The notes: generated by a model not told the origin, from the letters alone. A DNA stretch of 64,000 nucleotides from an uncultured Candidatus Saccharibacteria bacterium (GCA_964436255.1 CAYTBW010000004.1:2685-66684), one strand, 5' to 3'. Numbered from the stretch's first letter, positions 1 through 24,598 are shown. Numbers and translations are program-made.

Positions 1-1465
1 CCCCATACAGCTTCTTGAGGTAAGGGCCGCGCAGAATTCCGTCATTATGCTCACCGCACGTGGTCCCTTCAAGCCGTATAACAATTTTGTAAAACTCGTC
101 CATGAGCTCAAAGACTTTCTTTCGATCACGCAGACTTGATAGATTCAGGAATGGCTGTAAATGGAAGTTCGCGTTTCCGGCGTGACCCCATACGGCAACT
201 TGGATTTTGTATTTTTCGAACACTCTATAAATCTCGCTAAGAAATTCGGGCATGTTCTTCAGTGGCACTGCGCCGTCTTCGATAATCGGTAAAGCCTTTT
301 TAGGTCCGTTGTACATCCAAATAACTGCAGCGGCGCTTCGGCGAATCTTCCATAGCGCGGCCTGCTCCTCGGGGTCGGTCGCATAACCAGACTCATAGGC
401 AAGCACCTTAAAGACCTTAGCTACCTTATTCGCCTTACGTAGTCTGGTTGCAGACTTCACGTCGTCGAACTCAACAAGCAGCGCAACGGCCGGGAGTTTG
501 TCAGGTATTAAGCCATCAATAATATGATTGTGATGGTCTCGCAAGAACTTAAGCAAATGATAATCCACGACCTCAAGGGCACTGGGCCCTAGGGGCATGA
601 TCTTCTCGACTGCCTCTGCCATACTCTCAACGCTATCGAAGAATCCAGTCAGGAGGATTGTATGGGAATTGTATTTTTCGGTCCTGAACGTAGCCTCAGT
701 CACCACGCCTAGAGTTCCTTGTGAGCCAACAATCAACTGGGATAAATCAAAACTACCGCCTTTGCCCTTAACATCCCAAAGATTATAACCCGCTGAATTC
801 TTACTGGTTTGCGGAGCAGCACTATTCACTATCGCCTTGTTGGCAGTAAGCAAAGCATCCAGTTCGCGGTATATGTGACCTTCGAAGTCGTCCTGGCGCT
901 TCTTGGCCTTGAGCTCTTTGCGATTTAGACGGCGGGTGCTTATGACGTCCCCATTACTCAACACAACCCGCAAGCCCGTAACATAGTTACGTGTTGCACC
1001 ATACTTGATCGTCTTCTCGCCTGCCGAGTTGTTAGCCACCGCACCACCGATCGTTGCAAAATCTATACTAGCTGGATAAGGTGGCATCCACTGGCCGTGA
1101 CTCTTTAATATACCCTGCATGTGCTGATAAATCATGCCGGGCTCTACCGTGATCGAGCGCTTCCCCATTCGAACCATGCGCTTCATGTGAGCCGGGAGTA
1201 CGAGCATGGCGCCGTTGCCAAGCGCACCGCCGCCCTGATCTGTGCCTTTACCACGAGCAGTTAGGTCGATCTTGTTCCCAGATTTTGCCCTTGCCTCCAA
1301 ATACCGCACAGCCAGCACGACATCCCTTTCCGATTTTGGATAGATGATAAGCTCCGGGGTAATCTTAAAAACACTACCATCGGTTGAAAAATAATCCCTG
1401 GCTGCACTGTCCAAAGTTACTTCGCCAACAAGCAGCCTACTAAGATCCTCTACTACGCTCTTCAT
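1..1465 (-). CDS. FAD-binding (PCMH-type) oxidase, GlcD/D-lactate dehydrogenase-like; C-terminus cut by the window edge
   Basis: Absent from the ORF track because it runs off the left edge. Manual reverse-strand translation from the ATG at 1465-1463 gives MKSVVEDLSRLLVGEVTLDSAARDYFSTDGSVFKITPELIIYPKSERDVV... and stays open to base 1. It contains GTDQGGGALGNGAML and LIVGSQGTLGVVTEATF stretches typical of FAD-linked oxidases. Confidence 0.75.
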   Translation of the reverse strand, partial: MKSVVEDLSRLLVGEVTLDSAARDYFSTDGSVFKITPELIIYPKSERDVVLAVRYLEARAKSGNKIDLTARGKGTDQGGGALGNGAMLVLPAHMKRMVRMGKRSITVEPGMIYQHMQGILKSHGQWMPPYPASIDFATIGGAVANNSAGEKTIKYGATRNYVTGLRVVLSNGDVISTRRLNRKELKAKKRQDDFEGHIYRELDALLTANKAIVNSAAPQTSKNSAGYNLWDVKGKGGSFDLSQLIVGSQGTLGVVTEATFRTEKYNSHTILLTGFFDSVESMAEAVEKIMPLGPSALEVVDYHLLKFLRDHHNHIIDGLIPDKLPAVALLVEFDDVKSATRLRKANKVAKVFKVLAYESGYATDPEEQAALWKIRRSAAAVIWMYNGPKKALPIIEDGAVPLKNMPEFLSEIYRVFEKYKIQVAVWGHAGNANFHLQPFLNLSSLRDRKKVFELMDEFYKIVIRLEGTTCGEHNDGILRGPYLKKLYG

Positions 1466-1508
1466 AGCTACTAGTATACCAATTTTGCTTATGCTTGAGT
1501 ACCAATAA

Positions 1509-1537
1509 TTGACTTTGATACATAAGCATTATATATT
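1509..1537 (+). promoter_or_regulatory. sigma70-like promoter TTGACT-17-TATATT upstream of the Rpf-like gene
   Basis: TTGACT at 1509-1514, 17-nt spacer, TATATT at 1532-1537, 20 nt before the ATG at 1558. Sequence pattern only. Confidence 0.45.
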
Positions 1538-1557
1538 GATAGTAATTAGAGAATACT

Positions 1558-2427
1558 ATGCCAGCAAAACACAAAACTCGCCACGCGCATCAACACCCGC
1601 ACCACCACAAACACCTGGTGAGGCATCACAAGCCGAAACACCATAGTCCAATTCTCTATGTATTTATTGCCCTGTTTGCAATCTGCGGGCTCTACATCAT
1701 TTATCGAAGTCTAGCCGGCAGCTACATCGTCTATACCGATAACGTCGAATACTGGCGACCGCGCATTGCAGGCTGCGAAAGTGGCAGTGGGCCCAATAGC
1801 CAACCGCGATATACGGCCTTTAACGGAATAGCGCACTACGGTGCTTATCAATTCGACATTGGCACCTGGCGCAGCAATGTAAGTGCCGAAACAGCCGCCA
1901 TGTACCCTAAAGCATCTGATGCCCCTCCAGCTGTACAAGACGAGGCATTCCGCTCTACTTTTGCTAAACGCGGCACGCAGCCATGGAACGCATCGTATTA
2001 CTGCTGGTCTACGGCAGCCCGCCCGACACCTGTTCCCCTAGCCCTGCCGGACATTCTGCCTATCATCCCAGCTGCTTCGTATAATGTGTCCGTGACTGGC
2101 CAAGTTACCCTAGACGGACAGCCTAAAGAAGGTATTACTCTACAAACCTGTTACGAAGAATTCACGGTCAAGACCGATGCCGAAGGCAAGTTCACCCTAA
2201 GCCTGCCGAGCGGTACAAACTTCTGCCTTAGACCCACCAGTGGCGTCCCAGAAGGCTACCAGTTGACCAAAACTACGAACAATCCGGAGCAAAACAAGAA
2301 CAGCACCTTCGAAAACCAACGAGCGGGTGTCGGCGCCTATCGAAACATATTCTATCTATTCAGCCCTTACTACACCTGGGATCGCAACACCGACAAGGGA
2401 TATAACTTCATCTACACCAAGGTCTAA
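1558..2427 (+). CDS. Membrane-anchored Rpf-type transglycosylase-like domain protein with a C-terminal carboxypeptidase-regulatory/Cna-B-like beta domain
   Basis: His-rich N-terminus (HKTRHAHQHPHHHKHLVRHHKPKHH), then one TM helix. WRPRIAGCESGSGPN...NGIAHYGAYQFDIGTW...C follows the W..A.CES.G...G.YG..QF...TW pattern of resuscitation-promoting-factor transglycosylase-like domains. VTGQVTLDGQPKEGITLQ...KTDAEGKFTLSLPSG resembles a CarboxypepD_reg fold. Confidence 0.7.
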   Translation: MPAKHKTRHAHQHPHHHKHLVRHHKPKHHSPILYVFIALFAICGLYIIYRSLAGSYIVYTDNVEYWRPRIAGCESGSGPNSQPRYTAFNGIAHYGAYQFDIGTWRSNVSAETAAMYPKASDAPPAVQDEAFRSTFAKRGTQPWNASYYCWSTAARPTPVPLALPDILPIIPAASYNVSVTGQVTLDGQPKEGITLQTCYEEFTVKTDAEGKFTLSLPSGTNFCLRPTSGVPEGYQLTKTTNNPEQNKNSTFENQRAGVGAYRNIFYLFSPYYTWDRNTDKGYNFIYTKV

Positions 2428-2849
2428 GGCAACAGCGGCCAGTACGTGAGCTGCTTTTCGCAGGCTGCTTGAAACTCAAGCTCGTTCAGACCATACCGCT
2501 TGGCAATGGAGTGTAGTTTCGCGACTTTCCTAGGATTACGAACTTCATCGACCTGCTTGGAGGAACCGAGCCTCCTTCCAGCTCGTCGAAAAAAGAACCA
2601 ACGGCTTGTGTACTTTGGGTACATATAGACCATCCCGAGGGCATATCGCCAGCCCGACATTGGAAACTTAATACTGTGTCCGCTCCACCGAGCACGAGAA
2701 CAGGTGTAGACCACATCGCTTAACTCAGACCACTTCATAATTATGCCTTGAGCGGCTCGATACTCTTCTAGTTCCTCCGCCATATCTTGCTCGTGCCAAG
2801 CGCGATCTTCCTTCGGCATATTGAGCATGTTGTGCCATAGCTTGATCAT
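2424..2849 (-). CDS. hypothetical protein (141 aa)
   Basis: Clean ORF convergent with the Rpf-like gene, overlapping it by 4 nt. No motif recognised. Confidence 0.5.
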   Translation of the reverse strand: MIKLWHNMLNMPKEDRAWHEQDMAEELEEYRAAQGIIMKWSELSDVVYTCSRARWSGHSIKFPMSGWRYALGMVYMYPKYTSRWFFFRRAGRRLGSSKQVDEVRNPRKVAKLHSIAKRYGLNELEFQAACEKQLTYWPLLP

Positions 2850-2895
2850 GAATAATTGGCCCTCTGGATTTATGTAAGCCGAACTTAATAATTAC

Positions 2896-2981
2896 TGGTA
2901 CCGCGGAGAGGACTCGAACCTCCACAGGATTGCTCCCACTAGAACCTGAATCTAGCGTGTCTACCATTCCACCACCGCGGC
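2896..2981 (-). tRNA. tRNA-Leu (anticodon CAG), class II with long variable arm, CCA encoded
   Basis: The reverse complement reads GCCGCGGTGGTGGAATGGTAGACACGCTAGATTCAGGTTCTAGTGGGAGCAATCCTGTGGAGGTTCGAGTCCTCTCCGCGGTACCA. It has a 7-bp acceptor stem, anticodon stem CTAGA/TCTAG with loop TTCAGGT, and a GGTTCGAGTCC T-arm. Confidence 0.9.
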
Positions 2982-3085
2982 TCAATTAAAGTTACTGTGC
3001 AGTTTAACGTCATACTGGACGAAAAACACCCCGACACGCTGGTGTCTACGTCTATTTACGTTTCACGCAGCACCACCGCGGCTCA
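2970..3085. repeat. 15-bp direct repeat CACCACCGCGGCTCA (2970-2984 and 3071-3085): the tRNA-Leu 5' end is duplicated about 100 bp upstream
   Basis: Exact 15-mer match. The second copy is preceded by GGTGTCTACG, resembling the tRNA D-arm segment GTGTCTACC. Confidence 0.8.
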
Positions 3086-3162
3086 TTTATAACAAATGGG
3101 GGCTCTTATGTCATTGCCGAACGTATAGCATTGTACTACAGAGGGTCTTGCCCAGTATAGAC

Positions 3163-4890
3163 TTAGCGTGCGTCACGTTTCAAAACACGAACTCGCTTCA
3201 TGAACCACGTCTCGATGTTATTAAACCTATCGCTCGGCTCGGAGATCTTACCCGCATCCGCCCCCTCCACACGGACATCTTGGCCGTAAAGATACAGCGG
3301 ACTATAAAGAAGTGCGGCGGGCACATCCTTTGACCACACATCCAGGAAGGAAGCAAACTTTGCGGCTCGCGTATTCGGGTCACGACTCAAGCGTGCTGCC
3401 TCTAGTAACTTATCTGCCTCAACGCTCTTATAATTAGATATGTTCAGCCCAGGGTCAGCAATCTGACTTGAGTGCCAGAACGAATACGCATCCGAATCTA
3501 TGCCTACGTTCTGACCATAGAGTAGCAAGTCGTAGTTTCGTGGTCGGACGTGATTTTGCTGCAGGCTGACGATGTCGGTTTCTTTGATTTCTACTGGTAC
3601 GCCAACGAGCTCTAATTGTTGAGCAATCTGCCTTGCTACTGTGCTATACTCCGGCGACTTAAGAGTAACCAGGCGCAATGGCTTTGTCGTTTTATTAGCC
3701 TGTAAAACCTTGGATGCGGCTACCTGATCATGCTGATAGCGAACAGCTTTTGGGTTGAATCCAGCCTGGCCGGGGAGTATTGGGTAGTACACCGGCACAG
3801 CTCGGCTCGAGAGTGAGCCAGCGATGATACTATCTCGGTCAATCGCCTGCGTTATTGCCTGCCGTACAGAAGTATTGGCGAGGTAAGACGTCTTAGTATT
3901 ATAGAACAGCCCTACGTAGGCCGGCAAACTATATTCGTATATCTTCAGGCTTTCATTCTTTTCTGCAGCTCGAAGCTGGTTGGGATTAAGCTGAGAGATT
4001 CCCATAATCTGCTTACGAGCATAGCCGTCGAGCAGTGCCGCAGGGGTCGTATAAAGCGCGAAGTGAACCTCGTCCATCTTTGGGCGTCCTCGGTAATATT
4101 CCGAGTTAGCACGCAAGGTAATGAGTCCCAAATCGCTACCGAAGTCGTCAAGCACATAGGGGCCGGTACCAATTGGTCTTTGGCTAAAAGGGTTAACCCT
4201 AAGTTGTGAAAGCTGGATTGAATCAAGCAAATGGCTTGGCAATATGCCTACCGTAGTTGCAGATAGAAATGCTGTATAGCTATTTGGCAAGACAAACTTA
4301 ATCGTCTGCTCGTTCACCACTTCGTACTTTATGCCCTGCCAATTGTAGGCCAGCGGAGACTTGCTATCCGGGTTCTGTATGGCGGCTACCGTGAATGCGA
4401 CGTCCTTAGCGGTAAACGGTTGACCATCGTGCCACTTTACGTCCTTACGGAGATAGAACGTATAACTCTTTTGATCTGCTGAGATATCCCAACGCTCAGC
4501 CAGATCAGGCTCTATCTTGCGATCGCTGCCAACCTTTGTTAAGCCATTAAAGATCAATCTATTTACGTCGCTTGTGGCAGTGTTCTCGGGCAGGATGGGG
4601 TTCAAAATCCTAACTTCCCCTAATAAACCTTCGGTGTATACTCCCCCTTGAACTGGCTGCGTGGTGACAAAAAATGTATCCAAGCTGCCTATTCCTGCAA
4701 CTACACCCCAAACAGATACCGCAACGACAACGAGCCAGGATACAAACATCCACCGCATTGGGCCAAGCTTCTGCCACGCTCCATATACGTGCCTTTCGAG
4801 ATAGTTGCTAAGCCAACGTCGGCCAACCCATAATTGCTTGCGTAAACGGCGGGACTGTCTATGCCACCTAAACTTTATATAGGACCACAT
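3163..4890 (-). CDS. ABC transporter substrate-binding protein, family 5 (peptide/nickel type)
   Basis: 575 aa with an N-terminal membrane anchor. Overall OppA/DppA-like sequence (EGLLGEVRILNPIL..., DVKWHDGQPFTAKDV, GTGPYVL). Confidence 0.8.
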   Translation of the reverse strand: MWSYIKFRWHRQSRRLRKQLWVGRRWLSNYLERHVYGAWQKLGPMRWMFVSWLVVVAVSVWGVVAGIGSLDTFFVTTQPVQGGVYTEGLLGEVRILNPILPENTATSDVNRLIFNGLTKVGSDRKIEPDLAERWDISADQKSYTFYLRKDVKWHDGQPFTAKDVAFTVAAIQNPDSKSPLAYNWQGIKYEVVNEQTIKFVLPNSYTAFLSATTVGILPSHLLDSIQLSQLRVNPFSQRPIGTGPYVLDDFGSDLGLITLRANSEYYRGRPKMDEVHFALYTTPAALLDGYARKQIMGISQLNPNQLRAAEKNESLKIYEYSLPAYVGLFYNTKTSYLANTSVRQAITQAIDRDSIIAGSLSSRAVPVYYPILPGQAGFNPKAVRYQHDQVAASKVLQANKTTKPLRLVTLKSPEYSTVARQIAQQLELVGVPVEIKETDIVSLQQNHVRPRNYDLLLYGQNVGIDSDAYSFWHSSQIADPGLNISNYKSVEADKLLEAARLSRDPNTRAAKFASFLDVWSKDVPAALLYSPLYLYGQDVRVEGADAGKISEPSDRFNNIETWFMKRVRVLKRDAR

Positions 4891-5108
4891 TACTTAACAA
4901 CGAGACCGCCCAATAAGCTCCCGACAAAGATAATAGCGATCACGATGGTAGCGTAAAATAAAGCCTTCTCTGCACCGCGCTTAGACCTATAGAAGTTTCC
5001 TTCGCCTCCCCACGCACCACCTAGGCCTGCACCTTGGTTCTGCAAAAGTATTACTACGGTCAAGAGCACCGCGCTAATTAGGGTTACGTACTGTAGGATT
5101 TGCTTCAT
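4890..5108 (-). CDS. secG: preprotein translocase subunit SecG
   Basis: 72 aa, two TM helices, LLQNQGAGLGGAWGG motif typical of SecG. Confidence 0.8.
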   Translation of the reverse strand: MKQILQYVTLISAVLLTVVILLQNQGAGLGGAWGGEGNFYRSKRGAEKALFYATIVIAIIFVGSLLGGLVVK

Positions 5109-5461
5109 GCTTTTTCCTCCTTTATTAAACTAACTGCGGCATAGTTCACGAGCCAAACTATAGTGACCGCACCGAGTGCTGACCAGATTGACGTTATATC
5201 AAACGGCTTATAGATAGCACTTGTCAGGTAAAGCATAGCGGTATTAACTATAAGTGTAAAGAGCCCCAGCGTAAGCATTATAGCGGGCAATGAGAGTATG
5301 ATCGCCAAAGGTCGGATTAATGCATTAACTAAACCGAATATTAAACTCGCGACGATCAGTACTCGAAGCTTATCTTGATATTGAATCCCAGAAAACAATT
5401 GAGCAGCTATGGTGAGGCCGATAAAGTTCGCCGCCCAACTATATAGAAAGCGTTTTAGCAT
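5105..5461 (-). CDS. four-TM membrane protein of the phage-holin-4-like (PF04020-type) family
   Basis: 118 aa. FIGLTIAAQLF...LIFGLVNALIRPL..LSLP...TLGLF pattern. Overlaps secG by 4 nt. Confidence 0.55.
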   Translation of the reverse strand: MLKRFLYSWAANFIGLTIAAQLFSGIQYQDKLRVLIVASLIFGLVNALIRPLAIILSLPAIMLTLGLFTLIVNTAMLYLTSAIYKPFDITSIWSALGAVTIVWLVNYAAVSLIKEEKA

Positions 5462-5480
5462 TCATTAATTATACCATATA

Positions 5481-6971
5481 TCAGGTGTGACGCTTAGATC
5501 CTGAACTATGGATTGACTCATATATTAGACCCGCTTTTACGCCAACTATTTTCTCCAATTCAACCAAGGAAGCCTCTCGCACGCCACTCACACTGCCGAA
5601 GCTACGGACTAACTTTCGCCGAGTAACCGGCCCCACCCCTGGTATTGAATCAAGTAGCGATGTCTTGGTCCTTTTGTCTCTCAGATGAGTGTGGTAGCTA
5701 ACCGCAAAACGGTGTGCCTCATCCCTCACCCGCTGCAAAAGCTGGAGCGACGGTGAGCTATGTTTAATTCTTAACGTCGTGAAGGCCTCCTCCTCCAATA
5801 GCTCATCACCTTCTTGCGGCCTTATAGTGGCCGTAGAGGAAACTTGGTCCTTAATACGCACCACCTCTTCGTAGCGCTTTGCCAAACCGAAACGCGCTAT
5901 GTTAATCCCGAGCTCCTCTAAAACCTCGCTGGCCGCCGAAAGCTGGCCTTTGCCGCCGTCGATCAGTATTAAGTCCGGCTTCCTCCAATCATGCTTTCCG
6001 CTAAAGCGTCGGCGCATTGTCTCTGCCATCATAGCAAAATCATTTGGACCTTTTGTCCGCATTTTAAAGTGCCGATATTCCCGCTGATCGGGCAGTCCGT
6101 TTGTAAAAACAATCATACTACTCACGGCGTCACCGCCAGCAAAGTTCGATATATCATAAGCCTCAATCCTCCCCGGGGGACCGCTCAGCCCAAACCGATC
6201 GCTCAGCCCATTAAGGGCCTGATCGAGCGTAAAATCGAACGTCTCCTCTTTGCCGAACACACTCTTCTGGGAGAGAGATTTTAATGCCAAGTATTGGTCG
6301 CGCAACTTCGCTGCTTCCTCGAACCTCTTGGCCTTAGCAGCCTTCTTCATCGCGCCCTCAATCTCTCGAATGAGCTTCATGCTATCACCCCTAAGGATCA
6401 TAGTGAGTTTGCGTAAGTTAGCTTTATAGTCCGCCGAGCTTATATCTGGAGCCGGTGAAACACCGATTTGATGTTGCAATGCACTCACCTTGGGCCAAGC
6501 TGCGTCTGTGATGTAAGGGAATATTCTGCGCAGATACCGCATAGCTGAACGAACGCTTCCGCCGGATACAAATGGGCCAAAGTACGTCGCCTTATCGTCT
6601 TGTGGCCTACGGACATAACTCACACGAGGAAAGTCTTCCTGCGTAGTAATCTTAATATAGAGGAAGTTTTTGTCATCACGCAGCTCGACGTTATAGAGGG
6701 GCTTATGACGCTTAACGAGTTCTGATTCTAAGAACAATGCCTCAATTTCCGAGCTCGTTACAATCCAGTCGACGTCGGCTATGTTCTCTACAAGTATCGG
6801 TGTTTTTGTGTCTTTGTGATGTTTTTGAAAATACGAAGATACCCTACGTTTTAAGATGGAAGCTTTTCCCACATAGATAATTTTACCCTTCGCATCTTTA
6901 TAGAGATATACACCTGGCTCTGCAGGGAGCTGCTTGAGCTTGTCTTTAAGCTGTTGGTTCATAAGATCCAT
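5481..6971 (-). CDS. uvrC: excinuclease ABC subunit C (compact form, 496 aa)
   Basis: GIY-YIG N-terminus (GVYLYKDAKGKIIYVGKA), UVR motif (RFEEAAKLRDQYLAL), C-terminal HhH (IPGVGPVTRRKLVRSFGS). Confidence 0.9.
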   Translation of the reverse strand: MDLMNQQLKDKLKQLPAEPGVYLYKDAKGKIIYVGKASILKRRVSSYFQKHHKDTKTPILVENIADVDWIVTSSEIEALFLESELVKRHKPLYNVELRDDKNFLYIKITTQEDFPRVSYVRRPQDDKATYFGPFVSGGSVRSAMRYLRRIFPYITDAAWPKVSALQHQIGVSPAPDISSADYKANLRKLTMILRGDSMKLIREIEGAMKKAAKAKRFEEAAKLRDQYLALKSLSQKSVFGKEETFDFTLDQALNGLSDRFGLSGPPGRIEAYDISNFAGGDAVSSMIVFTNGLPDQREYRHFKMRTKGPNDFAMMAETMRRRFSGKHDWRKPDLILIDGGKGQLSAASEVLEELGINIARFGLAKRYEEVVRIKDQVSSTATIRPQEGDELLEEEAFTTLRIKHSSPSLQLLQRVRDEAHRFAVSYHTHLRDKRTKTSLLDSIPGVGPVTRRKLVRSFGSVSGVREASLVELEKIVGVKAGLIYESIHSSGSKRHT

Positions 6972-7002
6972 TATATCAACTATTGCTAGTTTCTAATATG
7001 CA

Positions 7003-7031
7003 TTGCATAACTGTTTCGCCTGGGCTATACT
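7003..7031 (+). promoter_or_regulatory. sigma70-like promoter TTGCAT-17-TATACT at the left edge of GC-rich segment A
   Basis: TTGCAT 7003-7008, 17-nt spacer, TATACT 7026-7031. Pattern only. It lies in the uvrC upstream gap. Confidence 0.4.
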
Positions 7032-7142
7032 CTAGTTGTCCCGTCCATTCGAGCCCTGGAGGCAAAGATCCTTACCAAACAGTCCCTTATCTTCCAGCTG
7101 CAACTTGCCCTCCACGGTGAGCACGACAGTCTGGTTCCGCAC

Positions 7143-7451
7143 TTGGCCCTCGTTCTATCTGACATCCTGGTGGCCCAGCGCGAGATGCTCACAATCGTAT
7201 CCACTGAGTCGGCGACAGAGGAGGAACGGCCCGACGAACCACCATGGGAGCTTCTCGATGCTCAGGCTCGCATTGCTGCTCGCTTCGATCAAGCTGTGCA
7301 CCGCTTCGGGGACAAGTTGAACATAGAACACTTCTCCGACCTGGTTCAACGTTCACTCGGCAGCGCTGAAGAAAACGGCGGTCACGAGCGAGAACGCATC
7401 CTGCGCGAGATCGCCGCCGAGCACAACACCACGCCCATCGAGCGTCCTTGA
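7143..7451 (+). CDS. hypothetical protein; start uncertain (frame open back to 7011 with no canonical start before the TTG at 7143)
   Basis: Track ORF of 102 aa. The same frame reads ...PSIRALEAKILTKQSLIFQLQLALHGEHDSLVPH upstream. The stop at 7449-7451 runs straight into a 14-bp hairpin. Confidence 0.55.
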   Translation: MALVLSDILVAQREMLTIVSTESATEEERPDEPPWELLDAQARIAARFDQAVHRFGDKLNIEHFSDLVQRSLGSAEENGGHERERILREIAAEHNTTPIERP

Positions 7452-7484
7452 AGGGTCGCAGTAACAACCGTTACTGCGACCCTT
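7451..7484 (+). terminator. perfect hairpin AGGGTCGCAGTAAC-aacc-GTTACTGCGACCCT followed by TTCCCTTT
   Basis: Arms 7452-7465 and 7470-7483 are exactly complementary. Confidence 0.7.
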
Positions 7485-7516
7485 TCCCTTTGATAACTAC
7501 TTTTTGTCATAGTGTA

Positions 7517-7545
7517 TTGACATTATTTGCAAACTGTGCTATCAT
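7517..7545 (+). promoter_or_regulatory. near-consensus promoter TTGACA-17-TATCAT with a TG-n extended -10
   Basis: TTGACA 7517-7522; TGCTATCAT spans 7537-7545. It sits in a short AT-rich patch inside the GC-rich island, about 180 nt upstream of the ATG at 7725. Confidence 0.55.
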
Positions 7546-7603
7546 ATTTGGCACGTTCCTAGTTTTTCTACTTTGAATGTACATTTAAAACCGACTACTT
7601 ATT

Positions 7604-7619
7604 GTCAATATGTATTGAC
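7604..7619 (+). promoter_or_regulatory. perfect palindrome GTCAATA-TG-TATTGAC (operator candidate); the 9-mer TGTATTGAC also occurs at 7513-7521 over the -35
   Basis: Arms 7604-7610 and 7613-7619 are reverse complements. TGTATTGAC occurs at both 7513-7521 and 7611-7619. Confidence 0.5.
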
Positions 7620-7629
7620 TCTTGACCTG

Positions 7630-7668
7630 CGGATACCTGTAAAGCAACGCCTGCTTTGCGGCTATCCG
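7630..7668 (+). promoter_or_regulatory. imperfect ~15-bp stem-loop in the 5' leader of the 7725 ORF
   Basis: CGGATA (7630-7635) pairs with TATCCG (7663-7668). GTAAAGC (7639-7645) pairs with GCTTTGC (7653-7659). The loop is 7 nt and no U-tract follows. Confidence 0.45.
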
Positions 7669-7724
7669 TACTGGCCAAGAGTCTGCCAACGGAATTCACC
7701 CCAAAAGACTCACTTGGAGGGCCC

Positions 7725-8489
7725 ATGGCCATCACCGAAGACACCCAGTCCATCCTCGCGATCACCGCGACCGACACCGCCAAGGAGGCGATCATCATCG
7801 CCCTCGCGGGCGGTGTGCGGTTCCAGACCGTCGACGAGGCCCTGGCCTGGTCGGAGACGGCCCAGGCGGCCAAGTACCTGTTCGGCACCCACTCGAGCGC
7901 TGCGAGGAACCTCTTCCAGCTGCGCGAGCAGCTGAAGCGGGAGAAGTCGGCCCAGAGCGCCCTGGCGCGCCTGAACCGACTGTGGCTCAACGGCACCGTG
8001 CAGACGGCGCTGTGGAAGGCCTTCGTCCGCGAGGACATCCGCAAGGCCCTCGTGGCCGAGCTGAAGGAGGCCAGCCGCAAGGACATCGAGGCCCGCAACG
8101 CGGTCCTCGAGAAGGTCATTGCCCGGCTGGACGCCAAGGATGCCGAGGAGACCGAGAAGGAGGAGCTGATCGCCCAGATCAAGCCCCTCGTCGAGGACTC
8201 CTACTTCCTGAACGTCATCGTCGGCCGGGACAGCCTGCGACCCGACAGCCTGCGGGCGATCGACAAGATCATCGCCGGCAAGGGTGTGAGCGTCCACCTC
8301 GGGCAGCTGCGCGGCCTGGCCAAGCACCTCGGCAACATCCACCGCAGCTCCTCCGGGAGCGACGGTGGCCGCCGTGGCAAGGGCAAGGACCCGCGCAAGG
8401 CCGAGAAGGCGGCGCGTGACCGGGCGATCCGGGCACGGATGCACCAGCCCAAGGGCCAGGAACCGTCCAAGCACGGCAAGAAGAAGTAG
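7725..8489 (+). CDS. hypothetical protein (254 aa), helical with a lysine/arginine-rich C-terminal tail
   Basis: ATG at 7725 preceded by GGAGG (7716-7720). GC3 jumps to nearly 100% only after this ATG, so the track start at 7656 is rejected. The tail is GGRRGKGKDPRKAEKAARDRAIRARMHQPKGQEPSKHGKKK. No family recognised. Confidence 0.7.
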   Translation: MAITEDTQSILAITATDTAKEAIIIALAGGVRFQTVDEALAWSETAQAAKYLFGTHSSAARNLFQLREQLKREKSAQSALARLNRLWLNGTVQTALWKAFVREDIRKALVAELKEASRKDIEARNAVLEKVIARLDAKDAEETEKEELIAQIKPLVEDSYFLNVIVGRDSLRPDSLRAIDKIIAGKGVSVHLGQLRGLAKHLGNIHRSSSGSDGGRRGKGKDPRKAEKAARDRAIRARMHQPKGQEPSKHGKKK

Positions 8490-8497
8490 TCGGCCTA

Positions 8498-8538
8498 GCC
8501 GGATCCACCAGAGCAGCGTTGCTCTAGGTGGATCCGGC
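8498..8538 (+). terminator. long GC hairpin GCCGGATCCACCAGAGCA-gcgt-TGCTCTaGGTGGATCCGGC; a second hairpin follows at 8539-8577
   Basis: 18 paired bases with one bulge and no U-tract. CCCGACC (8539-8545) pairs with GGTCGGG (8571-8577) and encloses TAGAC-ata-GTCTA. Confidence 0.6.
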
Positions 8539-8582
8539 CCCGACCCAAGTTTAGACATAGTCTAGATTTAGGTCGGGATTAC

Positions 8583-8613
8583 AAAAACACCACTCAAAAT
8601 AAGTGGTGTTTTT
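8583..8613 (-). terminator. uvrA terminator, A/U-tract flanked (AAAAACACCACT-caaaata-AGTGGTGTTTTT)
   Basis: 12-bp perfect stem, 18 nt downstream of the uvrA stop. Symmetric, so potentially bidirectional. Confidence 0.75.
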
Positions 8614-8630
8614 GCTTTGGCTTTATAGCC

Positions 8631-11447
8631 TTACGTAAGGAGCTTTTGTAAATATTGGCCGGTGTGGGATTTAACAACCTTTGCAACCTGTTCCGGGGTA
8701 CCTTCGGCAATGACTATGCCGCCGCCGCTTCCGCCTTCTGGGCCTAGATCGATCAGCCAATCAGCACACTTAACAACGTCCAGATTGTGCTCGATGATCA
8801 GCATGGAGTTCCCCATGGTCACGAGTGCGTTAAGCACTTCTAGAAGTTTCTTGACGTCTTCAAAGTGCAAGCCGGTGGTTGGCTCATCTAGAATGTAGAG
8901 CGTTCTACCAGTGGCTCGCTTGGAAAGTTCGCTCGCCAGCTTAATACGTTGCGCCTCCCCACCCGACAGCGTGGTGGCAGATTGTCCTAGGCGGATATAA
9001 CCAAGTCCTACACTGCGCAACGTCTCGAGCTTACGATACACTGCTGGAATATTACCAAAGAAATCACAAGCATCCTCCACGGTCATCTCCAAAACATCGG
9101 CAATAGTCCTGCCCTTATATAAAATCTCTAAAGCTTCACGGTTATAGCGCTTGCCATGGCACGTTTCGCAGGTTACGTACACGTCTGGCAAGAAGTGCAT
9201 TTCAATCTTGATAATCCCATCGCCCTTACACGTCTCGCAGCGGCCACCTTTTACATTAAAGCTAAACCGACCAGAGCTGTAGCCACGAATCTTGGCTTCC
9301 GGCACCATGGCAAATAAATCGCGGATATCGGTAAAGGCACCTGTATATGTTGCTGGGTTTGATCGCGGTGTACGGCCAATCGGAGACTGGTTAATGTCGA
9401 TTACTTTATCCAAGTGCTCGGTTCCTAGGATCTCCTGATGCTTGCCAGCTGGCTCCTGCGCTCGATGGTACTCCTGGCTTAGCTTGCGGGCCAATATATC
9501 ATTTATGAGTGATGACTTGCCAGATCCAGACACCCCAGTTACGACCGTCATGATGCCGAGAGGAATATCGACCGATACGTCTTTTAAGTTATTTTCTGTT
9601 GCACCGACAATCCGAAGTTTCTTATCGGTTGGCTTGCGGCGTTGTTTTGGCACCTCGATTTTCTTAGCACCGCTCAGGTACTGGCCCGTCAAAGACTCTT
9701 TGCTCTTAGCGACTTCATCTGGGGTGCCAATAGCTATGACCTCACCGCCATGCTCGCCGGCAAGTGGACCGATGTCAACTACAAAGTCACTCGCTCGAAT
9801 AGTGTCTTCGTCATGCTCGACTACAATTACCGTGTTGCCGAGGTCTCGTAAGCGCTGTAGCGTACTAATCAATCTATCGTTGTCGCGTTGATGCAGGCCA
9901 ATTGATGGCTCATCAAGAATATAGAGCACACCCATGAGGCTGGAGCCAATCTGCGTTGCCAAACGAATACGCTGCGCCTCACCGCCAGCCAAGGTGTTAG
10001 CGCTACGATTCAATGTTAGGTAATTGAGACCAACATCATTTAAGAACTTAAGCCGCTCGCTAATCTCTTTAAGGATTTGCGCGGCTATTTGCTTTTCCTG
10101 CGAGTTCAGCTCAAGCCCAGAGAAAGTCCTTAGCGCATCTTCGACCGACATGCTGGTAAGGTCGGCAATCGACTTACCGTTTACGGTAATGGCCAACACT
10201 TCAGGCTTAAGACGCTTGCCGTGACACTCCAGGCACTCTTGTGTCGTCATGTATCGCTCGATCTCTTTCTTCACAAAGTCACTATCACTCTCACGATAAC
10301 GGCGTTCCAAATTAGGAATAATACCTTCAAAGGTTGTTTTATACGTACGTCCGCCCGGCCCGCGCACGCCAATTTCTTCGTCCCCTGTTCCATACAGCAA
10401 AATCTCAATTTCTTTAGTACTCAGCTTTTCGACCGGCACATCAAGCTTGAACTTGTGCTTCTCTGCGACTGCTTCGAGCAATTTGGTATACCACGTCATG
10501 CGCGAAGTAGTGCGGCTCCATGGACGAATAGCGCCCTCGACGACGCTAAGGCGACGATTCGGAATGACCATGTCGGGGTCTACGATCAAAAGCGAGCCCA
10601 AGCCAGTGCATTTAGGACAAGCCCCATGTGGCGAGTTAAATGAAAACAGTCGAGGCTCAATTTCTGGGAGTGAGAACCCGGAATCTGCCGTAGTGTAATG
10701 CTCGCTAAACACGCGCTCGTCACCAGTATCATGATCCTGTATGGTGATTACGCCTTCGCCCAAATGCAGTGCCTGCTCAATAGACTCGACCAAGCGCTGC
10801 CCGGGTTCATCTGGGTCAAGTGTCATTCGATCAACCGCTACCTCGATGGTGTGCTTCTTCTGCCTATCGAGTTCCGGTACTTCATCAATTGGCATCAGAG
10901 TGCCATTTAGGCGTACTCGGGAATAGCCTGCCTTTTGGATTTCACTTAGCAGGTGCCTGTGTTCGCCTTTTTTGTCTTTTACAATCGGAGCGAGAATAAC
11001 AATCTTTGTACCTTTAGGATACTGGCGGACCGAGTCCACGATCTGTGCTGGAGTCTGCTTGGTTAGGACCTCGCCTGTCGTGGGGTCATGCGGCACACCG
11101 ATGCGCGCGAAAAGTAATCGCAAGTAGTCATAGATCTCCGTAACCGTGGCAACGGTTGAACGTGGGTTGCGTGAACTAGACTTTTGGTCGATCGAGATAG
11201 CCGGACTCAGACCATCAATCTGATCAACATCGGGCTTTTCCATCAGGCCAAGGAACTGCCTGGCATAGGCACTAAGGCTCTCTACATATCGGCGCTGGCC
11301 TTCGGCGTAGATAGTATCGAATGCAAGTGAGGATTTTCCGGAGCCGGAGAGACCCGTAATTACCACTAGTTTGTCGCGGGGTATTTCGAGGTCTATGTTT
11401 TTGAGGTTGTGCTCGCGAGCACCCTTAATGACGATTTTATCAGCCAT
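8631..11447 (-). CDS. uvrA: excinuclease ABC subunit A
   Basis: 938 aa. Two ABC ATPase modules ([26 protein letters not shown] twice) and zinc-finger cysteines ([18 protein letters not shown]). Confidence 0.97.
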
Positions 11448-11516
11448 ATATGCCCTATCCTCACTTGTTAAATCAACGATTAACTATACAGGTAAACGCA
11501 ACGTTTTTCAAGTCCC

Positions 11517-12536
11517 CTAGGATGGCTTGTCGTCGAAATATGACTCAAAAGTTGGCTCTAAGCTCATGACGTGAGAGCCGCCATAAACCACAAAGGGCTT
11601 CTTGCCTTCCTGGATTGCGTCGGCCACGGTAGTGAAGATGTGGTGGTCGCGAGCTTCTGTCATCATGGTGTGAATTTCTGCCAATCTGCCCTCAGAACGT
11701 GGATCCCACGCCTTTGCAAGGACCGCACGATCCCCCATCGAGCTAAAGCCAATCGTACCATCTTCTCGCAGCTGAAGCTCTGGCAGGCCAAGCTCAGCCA
11801 AGTCGGCATTAAGCCTCTCCGCCAAGCCCCTAGCCTGGTTACGGAGAGCACTTAATATTTCTGGGTTTTGCTGAATGATCCTCTGCTTCTCGCTGTCAGG
11901 AATATCTTGAAAGCCTTCGACCCCATTCACGACTGCTTCTCCGTAAATCTGCATAGTAATGTCCTCTGGAAGAGGCGCAGAAGCTTCGTGAGTTAGATTT
12001 CTAATCATTAAAACAAGAACCAGCTCTTCCCGTCTCACACCGCGAGACTCGACGAAAGATGCAATATCTGCGTCGGAAGGCTCCCCGGTCACAGCTTCGA
12101 CCCCGTCCCTTGCCGCCAGGAACTGCATCAGCCCTGATTCACTCGCGCTACCAATCGCAGTCGACCTATCTGCTATGTACTTTTGCTCTCGAGCATCGCC
12201 TTCGAACACGACAAGCCGTTCTTCGGGCGAGGTAGCTGCCAAATATTCATTGTATGCCGACTCAATGTCAGAGTGGTTGCGCGACTCGGGGTTAAAATCA
12301 TGCAGATCCACTGCCCCGCCCTCCACTAGGCCTGGTGCATTGGGGTCTTTGGCTGCCTCGCCCGTAGCAGGATCGATCTTCTCGGTATTGATACTTGCAA
12401 TCAAGGTTAAAGAGCCATCCCCAAACTTATCAATCTTCGCCGTGCCAGCTGCTACCCTCTCATCGTTTCTTCGCGTGTATTCATCACCATATCCAGCATA
12501 TTCAGTCCAAGCTTCTGCCCGTCGGTTCGTTTCCAC
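11517..12536 (-). CDS. hypothetical acidic protein (339 aa) between uvrA and uvrB
   Basis: GTG start with no clear SD. Host-like composition (61 G+C in 12181-12300). No motif recognised with confidence. Confidence 0.55.
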
Positions 12537-12629
12537 AGCGATGCCGCTTAGCTCTCGCCATCTCTGGAGCCATAGCTCGATTGACTTGTTCGCGCTCTAC
12601 TCCTCCGGCCTGCTCTGGGCTAAGTGCGT

Positions 12630-14618
12630 TCATTTGCTCATCCTCTTGCCCTGAATCACATCATCGATCTCACCGAGCTGATCACGTAACTCGGCGGCCT
12701 TTTCAAACTGTAGGTTCGCAGCGGCCATTTGCATCTGCTCCTTAAGCTGACGCTGTAAGCACTTCAACTCGTCCTTGGGCACTTTGGCAAAGTCGATCGC
12801 CTTCACGTCAGCCTTCTCTGCCTCCAACTCCTCATGCATACGCTCTTCAATCGCCTTACTGATGCTCGCTGGAGTTATGCCATGGGTCATGTTGTAATCC
12901 TCTTGGACCTTGCGGCGATCTCTCGTGACTTTTATTGCGCGCTCCATGGAGCCCGTCATGTTATCCGCATACATAATCACTGTGCCTTCCTGGTGGCGAG
13001 CCGCACGGCCTATCGTTTGTATGAGTGAACTCTCGCTGCGCAAAAATCCTTCCTTGTCTGCGTCAATTATTGCGACCAAACTCACCTCTGGTAAATCCAA
13101 ACCCTCGCGTAACAAGTTAATCCCAACAACTACATCGTACACTCCAAGGCGCAAGTCTCGCAGAATATCAGTCCTATCAAAGGTGGCAACATCGCTATGC
13201 AAGTATTGAACTTTAATACCAATGTCCTGCAGGTACTCAGTCAGGTCCTCCGCCATTCGCTTGGTAAGCGTCGTAACCAAAGAGCGCTGACCCTTACTGA
13301 TTCGCTTGCGTATCTCAGCTATGAGGTCGTCCACCTGATGTTCAACTGGCCGCACCTCAATAATCGGATCGAGTAATCCCGTAGGGCGAATGATCTGCTC
13401 TACAACTTTGCCGGAGCGGCTGATCTCGTATTCATTCGGCGTGGCGGAAACATAAATGGTCTGATTGATGTGGCGATCAAACTCGGTGAAAGTGAGCGGC
13501 CGATTATCTAATGCTGATGGCAAACGGAAGCCATGTTCGACCAGTATCTCCTTGCGAGCGCGGTCGCCATTATACATGCCGCGTACCTGCGGCAGAGTGA
13601 TGTGCGACTCATCTACAAACATCAAGTAATCGTCAGGGAAGTAGTCCATCAGCGTCGCGGGCTGATCGCCAGGCTCACGATTCGTCAAGTATCTGGAGTA
13701 GTTCTCTATGCCTTTTACAAACCCCGTTTGCTGCATGATTTCTAGGTCGTACTTTATCCTGCTCTCGAGCCTCTGAGCTTCAATCAGCTGGTCGTTTGCC
13801 TTAAAGTGCGCCACGCGCTGCTGAGCTTCAGTTTGGATTTTAACCATGGCCTTTTCTAACTGTTCGCGCGGAGTCACATAGTGCTTAGCTGGGAAAATGC
13901 TTAGCTCGTTAAGGGACTTTGTAATCTCGCCGGTTAGCGGATCGATTTGCACGATGCGCTCGAGCGAGTCGCCAAAGAACTCTAGGCGGTATGCGTTCTC
14001 CTCCCCAATCGGGAAAATGTCTACATTCTCGCCGCGAACACGAAATACGCCACGTTCAAAACTCGTGTCGTTTCGAGCATACTGAATATCATTGAGCTGG
14101 CGCAGCATCTTGTCTCGCTTACGAAGCTCGCCGACCTTGAGGTGCATTGTCATGTCGGCATAGTCGCTTACGCTACCAATACCATAGATGCAGCTTACTG
14201 AAGCAATAATAATTACATCCCTGCGACTCAAAAGCGAGCTTGTTGCAGCGTGACGCAAGCGATCGATTTCCTCGTTAATCGCGCTGTCTTTTTCAATATA
14301 CGTGTCACTCCTAACTATGTATGCCTCTGGTTGATAATAGTCAAAATAACTAACAAAATAATGCACGGCATGCTCTGGAAAAAACTCTTTGAACTCGCCA
14401 TAAAGCTGGGCAGCTAAGGTTTTATTGTGACTCAGAATGAGCGTAGGGCGATCTGCCTTGGCAATAATGTTTGCCATCGTGAATGTTTTGCCCGAACCAG
14501 TCACCCCCAGAAGTGTTTGCTCGCGCATTCCGTTAGATAGCCCTGTACATAAGCCATCAATGGCAGCTGGCTGGTCGCCATTTGGTTCGTATTTAGATTG
14601 CAAATTGAATAGTGACAT
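12630..14618 (-). CDS. uvrB: excinuclease ABC subunit B
   Basis: [23 protein letters not shown] aligns with the canonical UvrB N-terminus. Helicase motifs ([12 protein letters not shown]) and a C-terminal UVR motif ([11 protein letters not shown]) are present. The track's extra 18 aa ([18 protein letters not shown]) would overlap a terminator hairpin, so they are rejected. Confidence 0.95.
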
Positions 14619-14624
14619 AAAACT

Positions 14625-14630
14625 ATTATA
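14625..14630 (-). promoter_or_regulatory. -10 box TATAAT placed 6 nt upstream of the uvrB ATG (leaderless arrangement)
   Basis: The reverse strand reads TATAAT-agtttt-ATG, with no SD possible. Confidence 0.5.
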
Positions 14631-14657
14631 GTCTATCTGGACAAAACAACAGCATAC

Positions 14658-14680
14658 AAAAAACCGACTCATTGAGCCGG
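14658..14680 (-). terminator. intrinsic terminator CCGGCTC-aat-GAGTCGG + TTTTTT about 145 nt downstream of the glutaredoxin-like gene
   Basis: 7-bp stem with one G-U pair, followed by a 6-U tract on the minus strand. Confidence 0.55.
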
Positions 14681-14822
14681 CATATTTGTGTGTCGCTAAC
14701 TACTGCACTGTGTGGAACTAAACCCAAACTCACCCTATGCACCTATCATAACAAAGCATCCTTGGACGAGCATTGGCGATAGAGCAAAAAAAGCCTAGGT
14801 GTTTTTAGTGCTTTGCCCATGG

Positions 14823-15071
14823 CTATGCAGTTGCCAAAAGTTCATCAAGCTTAGGCTTGTTGAAGCCGATGACAATCTGGTCATCGATATCGATCACTGG
14901 TACGCCCATCTGGCCAGATTTCTTGATCATCTCATCTGCAGCCTTAGGGTCGGCTTGAACGTTAACTTCTTTATAAGCTACTTTTTTATCCTTTAGGTAC
15001 TCCTTAACTGCACCACAAAAATGGCAGGTTGGAGTAGTATAAACGATTACGGGACTGTCTTCTCGGTTCAT
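14823..15071 (-). CDS. glutaredoxin/NrdH-like redoxin
   Basis: 82 aa. TCHFC active site in a VIVYTTPTCHFCGAVKEYL context. Confidence 0.8.
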   Translation of the reverse strand: MNREDSPVIVYTTPTCHFCGAVKEYLKDKKVAYKEVNVQADPKAADEMIKKSGQMGVPVIDIDDQIVIGFNKPKLDELLATA

Positions 15072-15123
15072 AATTAAACCCTTACTTTAACAAGTATAGT
15101 ATAGCACGGTGACCTCGGTGAAT

Positions 15124-24582: not shown

Positions 24583-24598
24583 CCTCATTTATTTAATC

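Follow-up and report, generated by a model that had tools for sequence, protein, structure and literature searches.

In Bacillus subtilis, the hbs mRNA contains a 14-bp interaction between its 5′ and 3′ untranslated regions (UTRs), which modulates cleavage of the leader by RNase Y (PMC5737220). In this message, which has a strong Shine-Dalgarno sequence, translation initiation and mRNA stability are coupled (Braun, Durand & Condon 2017, PMC5737220). A gene with a partly similar layout, denoted ORF2 (open reading frame 2; positions 7725–8489, plus strand), is located between uvrC and uvrA in DNA of an uncultured Candidatus Saccharibacteria bacterium (GCA_964436255.1 CAYTBW010000004.1:2685-66684); the whole stretch of 64,000 nt that was analysed is referred to as the window. 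Like hbs, ORF2 appears as a monocistronic unit whose 5′ UTR is highly structured and whose Shine-Dalgarno sequence matches the GGAGG core, and it shares with hbs a helix of 10–14 bp between leader and 3′ end, which for ORF2 is predicted with a pair probability of 0.84–1.0. The 3′ arm of the hbs helix is located in the 3′ UTR, whereas that of ORF2 spans the stop codon. Unlike in hbs, the whole 765-nt coding sequence of ORF2 has a GC content at third codon positions (GC3) of 0.95 and is predicted to fold beyond its synonymous permutations. The ORF2 product displays no similarity to HU and contains no HU (Bac_DNA_binding) or other Pfam domain. An effect on RNase cleavage is known for hbs, whereas the ORF2 helix is a predicted pairing.

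Folding of the full-length mRNA of the type I toxin aapA1 impedes its translation, and the Shine-Dalgarno sequence is sequestered until the 3′ end is processed (PMC5416894). The ORF2 message is predicted to share with the aapA1/IsoA1 system both a mostly paired Shine-Dalgarno sequence and closure by a 5′–3′ helix. In hok/Sok, the type I toxin mRNA is likewise folded and translationally inert. Type I toxins are, however, membrane peptides of fewer than 60 amino acids (aa), whereas ORF2 encodes a hydrophilic, helical protein of 254 aa; type I systems also include an antisense RNA, whereas the ORF2 locus displays one weak (9/12) promoter-like site on the minus strand (7570–7541). Ordered RNA structure at the scale of the genome is found in persistent RNA viruses, and “superfolder” or structure-optimised mRNAs have been engineered. 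ORF2 resembles such RNAs in that its predicted folding energy is 7–11% beyond that of controls and few individual pairs are conserved, i.e. in a global compaction. In contrast to viral ordered RNA, it is a single chromosomal bacterial gene, in which compaction would be reached via a shift at third codon positions. With transferred genomic islands, ORF2 shares a GC content and GC3 far above the average and an orientation opposite to the surrounding genes; it differs from them in being part of a syntenic and congruent locus without mobility genes or donor homologues, the bias of which outlasts the saturation of silent sites. Based on these comparisons and the data described below, we hypothesize, with moderate confidence, that ORF2 is a self-contained cassette that gives rise to a compact, closed-loop and hyper-structured mRNA, which may be long-lived or translationally gated.

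The window has about 50% GC, and its minus strand carries nearly all long genes, including uvrC (5481–6971) and uvrA (8631–11447), which were assigned by Pfam domains on the same proteins in related contigs. ORF2 and its smaller neighbour ORF1 are plus-strand reading frames, opposite to the surrounding gene orientation. The GC contents of ORF2 by codon position amount to 0.655/0.435/0.949; the third bases are C (133), G (108), T (8) and A (5), such that 241 of 254 codons end in C or G. This GC3 of 0.949 compares with 0.522 ± 0.035 (maximum 0.61) in 40 other genes of the window, a deviation of +12 standard deviations, and no second gene of the window displays such G/C-ending codon usage. It is the atypical composition by which horizontally acquired islands are recognised. 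The initial annotation had located ORF2 at the same coordinates with nearly all third positions G or C, as is the case. It had also described an island of about 68% GC, a value that holds only for ORF2 (68%); the whole of 7003–8577 has 60% GC, ORF1 has 58%, and the 273-nt spacer between the two reading frames has 43%, with an AT-rich core (7490–7620) of 30%. The mosaic that it had outlined, consisting of a GC-rich ORF, a hairpin, an AT-rich spacer, a second GC-rich ORF and two stacked hairpins, is indeed present. The GC3 excess is limited to the third positions of the ORF2 coding sequence: promoter and leader have 30–43% GC, and ORF1 is mildly enriched (GC3 0.65).

An identical 254-aa ORF2 protein is encoded on at least 12 contigs (JGI, ENA, Logan), in the order uvrC–ORF1–ORF2–uvrA wherever the flanks are present. 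An assembly chimera, which had been considered in the initial annotation, is ruled out by the same locus in at least 12 independent assemblies. Searching 185,579 species genomes, the sole match was a Saccharibacteria metagenome-assembled genome (GCA_964496815.1, 85% identity). An exhaustive HMMER scan of 1.84 billion representative proteins yielded six ORF2 clusters, and a word-indexed search of 5.8 billion clusters yielded three; a profile search with the alignment of seven sequences found known members only among the best 8000 candidates. The family consists of about seven members, and every cluster with an identifiable source is found in a Saccharibacteria-type context. Members P0002 (locus L010), P0003 (L013–L016) and P0005 (L019–L021) are located between uvrC and uvrA behind a small ORF, P0006 (L022) is found near groES/groEL, P0007 (L024, GCA_020427905.1) in another context, and P0004 (L018) on a contig of 820 nt. 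The layout uvrC–ORF1–ORF2–uvrA occupies the same site in four lineages. No ORF2 relatives were found in phage records, plasmid records or IMG/VR, and no homologues in a plausible donor group by representative-protein, cluster, species-genome and phage/plasmid/viral searches. These genomes are visible as fragments, within which the GC3 trait and the C-terminal motif described below were surveyed.

In comparisons of the window with the other lineages, the flanking genes display proportions of synonymous differences (pS) of 0.68–0.87, i.e. 69–81% of the saturation expectation, with protein identities of 73–98%. ORF2 identity amounts to 0.86 between window and L010 and to 0.35–0.38 in every other pair, and the topology of the ORF2 distances is that of uvrC, uvrA and the gene of a substrate-binding protein. 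No mobility genes or flanking direct repeats were found at the locus, and the nearest tRNA gene is about 4 kb away. Even where the genomic context differs, the ORF2 promoter and AT-rich leader accompany the gene. GC3 amounts to 0.875–0.96 in all seven family genes, compared to 0.43–0.62 in neighbouring housekeeping genes (uvrA, uvrC, groEL), in hosts of about 50% GC. For a test of saturation, synonymous differences at codons of conserved amino acids were compared with independent draws from each gene's own codon usage. The ratio of observed ORF2 divergence to this expectation is 0.97 for window and L013, and 1.01 for window and L019. Since the silent sites of ORF2 have turned over fully within a codon space of G and C endings, the bias appears to be actively maintained; a decaying foreign signature could not persist through such a turnover. 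Judging from these sequence comparisons, the locus is an old, vertically inherited and lineage-restricted orphan locus of a Saccharibacteria subclade, and not a recent insertion.

Two observations concern the genomic surroundings of the family. In L022, three small orphan ORFs (5488–6850; 160, 92 and 146 aa; GC3 0.80–0.83) without a Pfam match adjoin P0006 (4241–5245), and groEL of the same genome has a GC3 of 0.59; these genomes may harbour a class of GC3-rich orphan genes. Comparing window positions 1–17500 with the strains L001 and L002, blocks of at least 300 nt with no mismatch alternate with blocks of 5–18% divergence (e.g. uvrA 8700–9000, uvrB 12600–13500), a mosaic that fits frequent homologous recombination in the population. 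An island-specific sweep was considered, as the island is 100% identical between strains with uvrA 6–11% apart, but was rejected given that the whole region is the same patchwork.

The coding sequence of ORF2 is predicted to be more structured than its protein and composition require. As a null model, synonymous codons were permuted within each amino acid, which keeps protein, codon usage and composition. ORF2 of the window folds with a minimum free energy of −375.7 kcal/mol, compared to −339.4 ± 7.7 kcal/mol for the permuted sequences (z = −4.75). Comparable values were obtained for its relatives in L010 (z = −4.43), L019 (z = −4.45), L013 (z = −2.61), L022 (P0006, z = −6.46) and L024 (P0007, z = −3.74). 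The controls comprised 10 ordinary genes from the same genomes (eight of the window and two of L024; z from +1.7 to −2.25) and 10 genuinely high-GC3 genes from high-GC metagenome contigs (z from +0.8 to −2.6). With a stricter null model that keeps both the amino acid and the next base, the window sequence has z = −4.36 and five members range from −2.15 to −5.18, with controls between +0.7 and −1.8. The excess accounts for 7–11% of the folding energy in the six significant family members. Selection may act on overall compaction and not on one fixed fold; because conservation of individual pairs between window and L010 is weak, no specific conserved fold of the coding sequence is claimed. The initial annotation made no mention of a conserved RNA architecture or of a structure excess across the coding sequence, both of which were found here.

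The region upstream of ORF2 is conserved far above the neutral expectation. It contains a promoter (7517–7545, plus strand) composed of TTGACA, a spacer of 17 nt and the extended −10 element TG-n-TATCAT, with 11 of 12 consensus matches and the upstream TG. ATTGACA and the TAT-AT bases of the −10 element (TATCAT or TATTAT) are invariant across the aligned lineages, and an ATTGACA-N17 promoter also precedes the relatives in L022 and L024. Transcription probably starts at about 7551–7553 (near 7552), which would result in a leader of 173 nt. At its 5′ end, both minimum-energy and centroid folds contain a hairpin termed P0 (7551–7582); manual reading of the alignment suggests that base changes in L010, L019 and L013 leave its pairing intact. 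A long hairpin, P1 (7628–7670), pairs 7628–7646 with 7652–7670. Among five distinct sequences, 9 of 18 P1 pairs are changed on both sides and 97.7% of the alignment cells are paired; sliding the partner by 1–3 columns reduces this to 31–43%, and none of 500 shuffles reaches the observed values. The block CCGUACUGGCCAAGRGUCU (7666–7684) is invariant in all uvr-type lineages, and its GGCCAAG is kept in L022 as well. The 3′ part of this block has two options of pairing, namely P3 (7617–7624 with 7676–7683) or P2 (7679–7684 with 7706–7711), the P2 partner directly preceding the Shine-Dalgarno sequence. In alignment A5, column 100 covaries with either candidate partner (P2: A-U twice and G-C twice; P3: U-A, C-G and U-G), which would look like the pattern expected of an alternative-pairing switch, as judged from a single column. 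The Shine-Dalgarno sequence GGAGG (7716–7720), read from the sequence, has its G residues mostly base-paired in all five predicted ensembles of full-length transcripts.

No match to Rfam 15 was found in the leader; the best Rfam match elsewhere (MIR6154, 28.7 bits versus a gathering threshold of 100, on the 3′ hairpin H1 described below) is at chance level. A covariance model of the leader matched nowhere else, either in the window or in the related loci, and all 40 matches of the invariant leader 18-mer in a metagenome scan were chance occurrences inside unrelated coding sequences. If the present reading holds, the leader is a new RNA motif without an Rfam counterpart.

A direct repeat of 26 nt with 85% identity, ACTACTTnTTGTCAnnnTGTATTGAC, occurs at 7496–7521 and 7594–7619, i.e. 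98 nt apart; one of them extends into the −35 box of the ORF2 promoter, and the other is part of the leader. Each copy holds a palindrome (TGTCA-N8-TGACA; GTCAATA-TG-TATTGAC). The repeat is partly conserved in L010 and L019 and absent in L013/L015, and it could be an operator pair for a DNA-binding regulator. An SOS/LexA or PafBC-type operator was considered and rejected, given that the palindromes have no further occurrence in the window and are not kept in L013/L015. The pattern GTATTGAC has 2 matches in the window versus 1.4 expected, and no regulon could be defined. In addition, the 5′ arm of P1 (7630–7650) and the 3′ arm of H1 (8516–8536) share a complementarity of 76% over 21 nt. The two hairpins look alike (CGGAT…AGCA-loop-UGCU…AUCCG), a likeness not seen in L013, which may be a coincidence or reflect a shared protein-binding hairpin.

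The predicted closing helix is formed by CCGACUACUU in the leader (7591–7600, plus strand), which is nearly invariant in the leader alignment, and AAGUAGUCGG (8484–8493, plus strand), which spans the UAG stop codon (8487–8489). The arms are perfectly complementary over 10 bp. The helix is present in both minimum-energy and centroid folds of the full 1070-nt transcript, with an ensemble pair probability of 0.84–1.0 in window, L010, L019 and L013, each folded independently. In L013/L015 the leader reads CCAAC and the partner GUUGG, which constitutes a compensatory double change from G-C to A-U. L022 displays an analogous helix of 13–14 bp between leader (nt 109–123) and stop codon, unrelated in sequence and with its leader segment at a different position, with a probability of 0.97–1.0. 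Downstream of the stop codon, two inverted repeats form the stacked 3′-UTR hairpins H1 (8498–8538) and H2 (8539–8577), both on the plus strand. The base of H1 (GCCGG...CCGGC) is conserved and its interior is apparently compensated, as read by eye; H2 is almost invariant across the four uvr-type lineages. These are followed by a bidirectional intrinsic terminator (8582–8614; stem of 13 bp with a T-run, and an A-run on the other side), common to ORF2 on the plus strand and uvrA on the minus strand, the position of which is conserved in relatives.

In the mechanism that we propose, transcription from the near-consensus extended −10 promoter would yield the 173-nt leader with P0, P1 and the invariant CUGGCCAAGRGUCU, followed by a coding sequence recoded almost wholly to G/C-ending codons, and the unit would be closed by the leader-to-stop helix, the two 3′ hairpins and the terminator. 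The extreme GC3 would be a selected trait that lets the whole message fold compactly, and not a foreign leftover. Such a closed-loop RNA may be shielded from 5′ exonucleases, 3′ exonucleases and endonucleases, and would hence be long-lived. As its ribosome-binding site would be largely sequestered, translation would be gated in two ways: by which of its alternative pairings the invariant segment of the leader adopts, and by the opening of the closing helix when ribosomes reach the stop codon. The product is a fast-diverging helical protein, the basic tail of which would serve in docking. The data show the synteny, the orphan status, the persistence of GC3, the covariation of P1 and the excess of predicted structure in the coding sequence; the transcription start, the effects on stability and translation and the target of the protein are inferred from them.

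Several points weigh against this proposal. The RNA evidence is wholly computational, and the leader alignment comprises five distinct sequences. The closing helix is absent in L024, and a 10-nt complement between leader and 3′ region arises in 2.4% of shuffles of the window sequence; support for the helix consists of conservation, one compensated pair and one independent re-invention. P0004 of L018 has no significant structure excess (z = −1.30), and the pairs of the window fold are kept in L010 at 28%, compared to 21% in the null model (P ~0.04). Because GroEL and other presumably abundant proteins of these genomes are encoded without a GC3 bias, a general need for stable messages is not the whole story. 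Finally, ORF2 identity drops from 86% to about 36% where uvrC falls only from 89% to 80%, and this disproportionate divergence may leave room for allele replacement by recombination.

The ORF2 protein (254 aa) consists of an all-helical body and a conserved basic C-terminal peptide. The AlphaFold2 model, computed with an alignment of seven sequences, is all helical (predicted local distance difference test (pLDDT) 84, predicted template modelling score (pTM) 0.67), in agreement with the helical product expected in the initial annotation. The protein is hydrophilic, with an isoelectric point (pI) of 10, and the tail has a pI of 11.4. No significant match of ORF2 was found in Pfam, PHROGs, NCBIfam or PADLOC; defence models of PADLOC-DB gave only noise (BrxA E = 0.041, Cas1 E = 0.037). 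Neither the family profile nor a profile of the tail alone retrieved any PDB sequence, and a search of Pfam with the tail was equally negative. The Lys/Arg tail, which the initial annotation had quoted correctly, is the most conserved part of the protein: the ratio of non-synonymous to synonymous differences (pN/pS) falls from 0.50 in the body to 0.09 in the tail (last ~45 residues). The invariant positions are K-G-x-[DS]-P-R-K-A-x-K-x-x-R-D-x-x-I-R-x-x-M-x4-G-Q-x-P. Because tail codons vary synonymously between lineages while the residues are fixed, the constraint acts on the peptide. The pS itself is 0.17 in the body versus 0.32 in the tail, and the lower value suggests a constraint on silent sites in the body. 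The tail motif occurs once per related locus and nowhere else in the 64-kb window. Conservation of exact residues suggests binding to one specific partner and not an effect of charge in general; most likely, the tail would dock onto a conserved nucleic acid or nucleoprotein partner. If this reading holds, ORF2 defines a putative new family of orphan proteins, marked by a docking peptide that is sharply conserved at the C-terminus.

ORF1 (7068–7451, plus strand) encodes an acidic protein of 127 aa (pI ~5) with a probable AUC start. It is preceded by a promoter-like site (7003–7031, plus strand; TTGCAT at 7003–7008, a 17-nt spacer and TATACT at 7026–7031) within a 96-bp divergent region common to uvrC. 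The blocks ATTGC(A/C)TAA and CTA(T/C)A(C/A)T of this region are kept in all five aligned lineages, which is consistent with a working promoter. The reading frame stays open between 7011 and its end at 7451, in line with the initial annotation, which had left the start within 7011–7143; this can be refined to 7068. The peptide upstream of TTG 7143 is conserved in L010 (ILT.(K/Q)SL..QLQ.AL…HDSLVP) and can be aligned with the N-terminus of the L015 protein, which has an ATG start, the AUC at 7068 comes 5 nt after a GGAGG (7058–7062), and the same AUC codon is found in L010. Hence, as the upstream peptide is conserved and both GGAGG and the conserved promoter precede AUC 7068, ORF1 was annotated as 7068–7451, and AUC 7068 is the most likely start by this sequence evidence. 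A pN/pS of 0.31 between window and L010 indicates that ORF1 is a real coding gene. No homologues were found beyond near-identical ones, and Pfam, PHROGs, NCBIfam and PADLOC gave no significant match; ORF1 is a fast-evolving orphan protein. That neither reading frame belongs to a recognisable family had been stated in the initial annotation as well and agrees with these searches.

Downstream of ORF1, a terminator-like hairpin (7451–7484, plus strand) has perfect arms of 15 nt and a 4-nt loop, followed by UUCCCUUU. In the initial annotation it appeared as a perfect hairpin of 14 bp. In L013, L015 and L019 the hairpin persists, with compensated changes in its arms; owing to its interrupted U-tract, it escaped a simple terminator scan. 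Alleles of ORF1 fall into class A (window, L010, L015) and class B (L013, L019), and the combinations of ORF1 and ORF2 alleles comprise A+a, A+b, B+b and B+c. Since L013 and L015 share an identical ORF2 protein with unrelated ORF1 classes, the two genes recombine independently. Beside the most distant pair of ORF2 relatives (L022 and L024), no ORF1 could be detected. ORF1 is thus a separate small acidic protein and not an obligate partner of ORF2.

Other explanations of the locus centre on the protein or on the origin of its codon bias. Each of them leaves unaccounted for one or more of the following: the synteny combined with saturated silent sites, the sharp restriction of the bias by codon position, the z values of the permutations, the independent assortment of ORF1 and ORF2 alleles, and the conserved architecture of the UTRs. 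ORF2 may encode a host-interaction effector, the variable body of which acts on an actinobacterial host, with the tail as a secretion or docking signal and ORF1 perhaps as an acidic chaperone (cf. VirE1/VirE2). The RNA features would then be a secondary regulation, so that this possibility, which we consider unlikely, is compatible with the mRNA model. Its attraction lies in the architecture of a variable body and a conserved C-terminal peptide, the fast divergence of the body with divergent recombining alleles, and the small acidic neighbour (127 aa, pI ~5) of a protein with a tail of pI 11.4, which is reminiscent of effector-chaperone pairs of type III and type IV secretion systems (T3SS/T4SS style). 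However, ORF1 and ORF2 alleles assort independently, the tail motif appears in these genome fragments a single time in the window (64 kb) and in each related locus, with no sign of a shared export signal, and GC3 and RNA structure are left unexplained. More improbable still appears the regulator-plus-effector or toxin-antitoxin-like pair proposed in the initial annotation, or an anti-phage defence pair, in which acidic ORF1 would neutralise the basic ORF2 protein. An acidic protein (pI ~5) does adjoin a basic one (pI 10), both evolve fast with divergent allele classes as in arms-race genes, and the predicted folding-back of the mRNA and occlusion of its Shine-Dalgarno sequence recall the messages of type I toxins. 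The separate promoters and terminators of the two genes argue against it, as genes of type II systems are co-transcribed and usually overlap or are a few bases apart, whereas here the ORF1 terminator and 273 nt intervene. Type II systems also belong to a known family or fold, whereas ORF1 and ORF2 fit none and match no toxin, antitoxin or defence family, and cognate partners co-occur and co-vary, whereas here ORF1 is not detectable beside the L022 and L024 relatives and the alleles assort independently. In addition, ORF2 is a hydrophilic protein of 254 aa instead of a short membrane peptide, and no convincing antisense promoter was found.

As regards the codon bias, ORF2 might be subject to codon-biased translational control, being tied to GNN/CNN tRNAs (e.g. 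when U34-modified tRNAs fail), with RNA structure as a side effect. This we consider rather improbable: 241 of 254 codons end in C or G, and the tRNAs encoded in the window (Leu-CAG, Gln-CUG, Ala-GGC) read G- or C-ending codons, but the non-random arrangement of synonymous codons, the conserved UTR structures and the closing helix would be unexplained, and no other gene of the 64-kb window has such a usage. Distinctly improbable is a neutral origin of the bias, as a by-product of GC-biased gene conversion or of mutational bias local to a recombination hot spot, with the added RNA stability being incidental. In line with it are the alternation of mismatch-free blocks with blocks of 5–18% divergence, which marks the population as strongly mosaic and recombining, and the mild GC3 enrichment of ORF1 (0.65). 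The bias ends exactly at the ORF2 boundaries, however, with leader and promoter of the same recombining unit at 30–43% GC, and it accompanies the gene into two other genomic contexts. Moreover, composition cannot produce z values of −2.6 to −6.5 against permutations that keep composition, high-GC genes lack the effect, and the lower pS in the body (0.17) than in the tail (0.32) suggests a constraint on silent sites. Very little credence is given to a recent horizontal acquisition, i.e. a fragment of a high-GC donor (actinobacterial host, phage or plasmid) that is inserted and not yet ameliorated, as implied when the initial annotation took the codon usage for that of a far more GC-rich genome. 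ORF2 codon usage is like that of high-GC Actinobacteria, on which cultured Saccharibacteria live; a cytidylate kinase gene in the window (GC3 0.76) indicates that GC-rich imports may occur, and the L022 family member is found amid other GC3-rich small ORFs. Yet the same site is occupied in four lineages with near-saturated flanks and congruent protein distances, and the silent sites of ORF2 are saturated with GC3 still at least 0.88. Homologues are confined to a few Saccharibacteria contigs across 1.84 billion proteins, 5.8 billion clusters, 185,579 genomes, phage and plasmid records and IMG/VR, and no donor homologue is among them. The AT-rich promoter and leader move with the gene, and the locus has no mobility genes, tRNA gene or flanking direct repeats. 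Finally, the ORF2 message might act outside its maker, as a nuclease-resistant mRNA in the codon dialect of the host that is translated or acts in an actinobacterial host, or its protein might be delivered. Host-like codon usage, an RNA predicted to be extremely compact, a promoter of a type that either partner would read and a fast-evolving body would be compatible with such a reading, which we consider far-fetched.

If the compact closed-loop message is real, it would represent a natural recoding of the silent sites of one gene (GC3 from ~0.52 to 0.95). Engineers of mRNA came to a similar compact design only recently. The locus would provide a testable system for how far selection on mRNA structure overrides genomic codon usage, and for a coupling of translation to mRNA stability via 5′–3′ closure and stop-codon pairing, as well as a window on post-transcriptional regulation in the ultra-small, host-dependent Saccharibacteria. 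Atypical GC3 is routinely taken as a sign of recent horizontal transfer, an inference that fails at this locus.

Two further interpretations of the locus were rejected. An engineered construct was first suggested by clustered restriction-type palindromes (two BamHI sites in the arms of H1, EcoRI, ApaI/NcoI at the start codon, and XbaI in H2) together with the consensus promoter; the locus is present in at least 12 independent metagenome assemblies, and diverged relatives keep the structures and not the sites. An antisense ORF of 282 aa (7710–8558, minus strand) is not considered a real gene, as its GC contents by codon position (0.91/0.46/0.65) mirror a high-GC3 sense gene; the frame is open because the sense strand lacks TTA, CTA and TCA codons.

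Regarding the neighbouring genes, the annotated ATG of uvrC (6971–6969, in the region 6960–6990) is given as lying within a TATAAT hexamer of the minus strand (6986–6981). Orthologues of uvrC begin at the position of the second ATG (6962), reading MNQQLKDKL; the uvrC leader may be very short or the gene leaderless, and the length of 496 aa is perhaps 3 residues too long. An orphan ORF of 339 aa (11517–12536, minus strand) without a Pfam or NCBIfam family is located between uvrA and uvrB. At the same uvrA–uvrB position, L010, L013 and L019 have an ORF of 371–378 aa without a Pfam match, a correspondence of position. In this way uvrC, uvrA and uvrB are all interleaved with lineage-specific unknown genes.

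The cytidylate kinase gene mentioned above (23866–24525, plus strand; 219 aa; GC 0.615, GC3 0.76; Pfam PF02224, E = 3.6e-45) is a second GC-rich plus-strand gene amid minus-strand genes, followed by a GC-rich hairpin at about 24540–24585. Its coding RNA displays no clear structure excess (z = −1.8 with codon permutation, −1.3 with the stricter null model), and the gene may be a genuine import from a GC-rich organism. The tRNA genes of the window, Leu-CAG (2896–2981), Gln-CUG (35897–35971) and Ala-GGC (53285–53360), all decode G- or C-ending codons. In L001 (JGI contig Ga0558716_10825), uvrC is called as two ORFs (421 and 86 aa; 5756–7247), and so is uvrB (462 and 156 aa; 12914–14902); these splits are frameshifts in one strain, resulting from either assembly errors or pseudogenisation.

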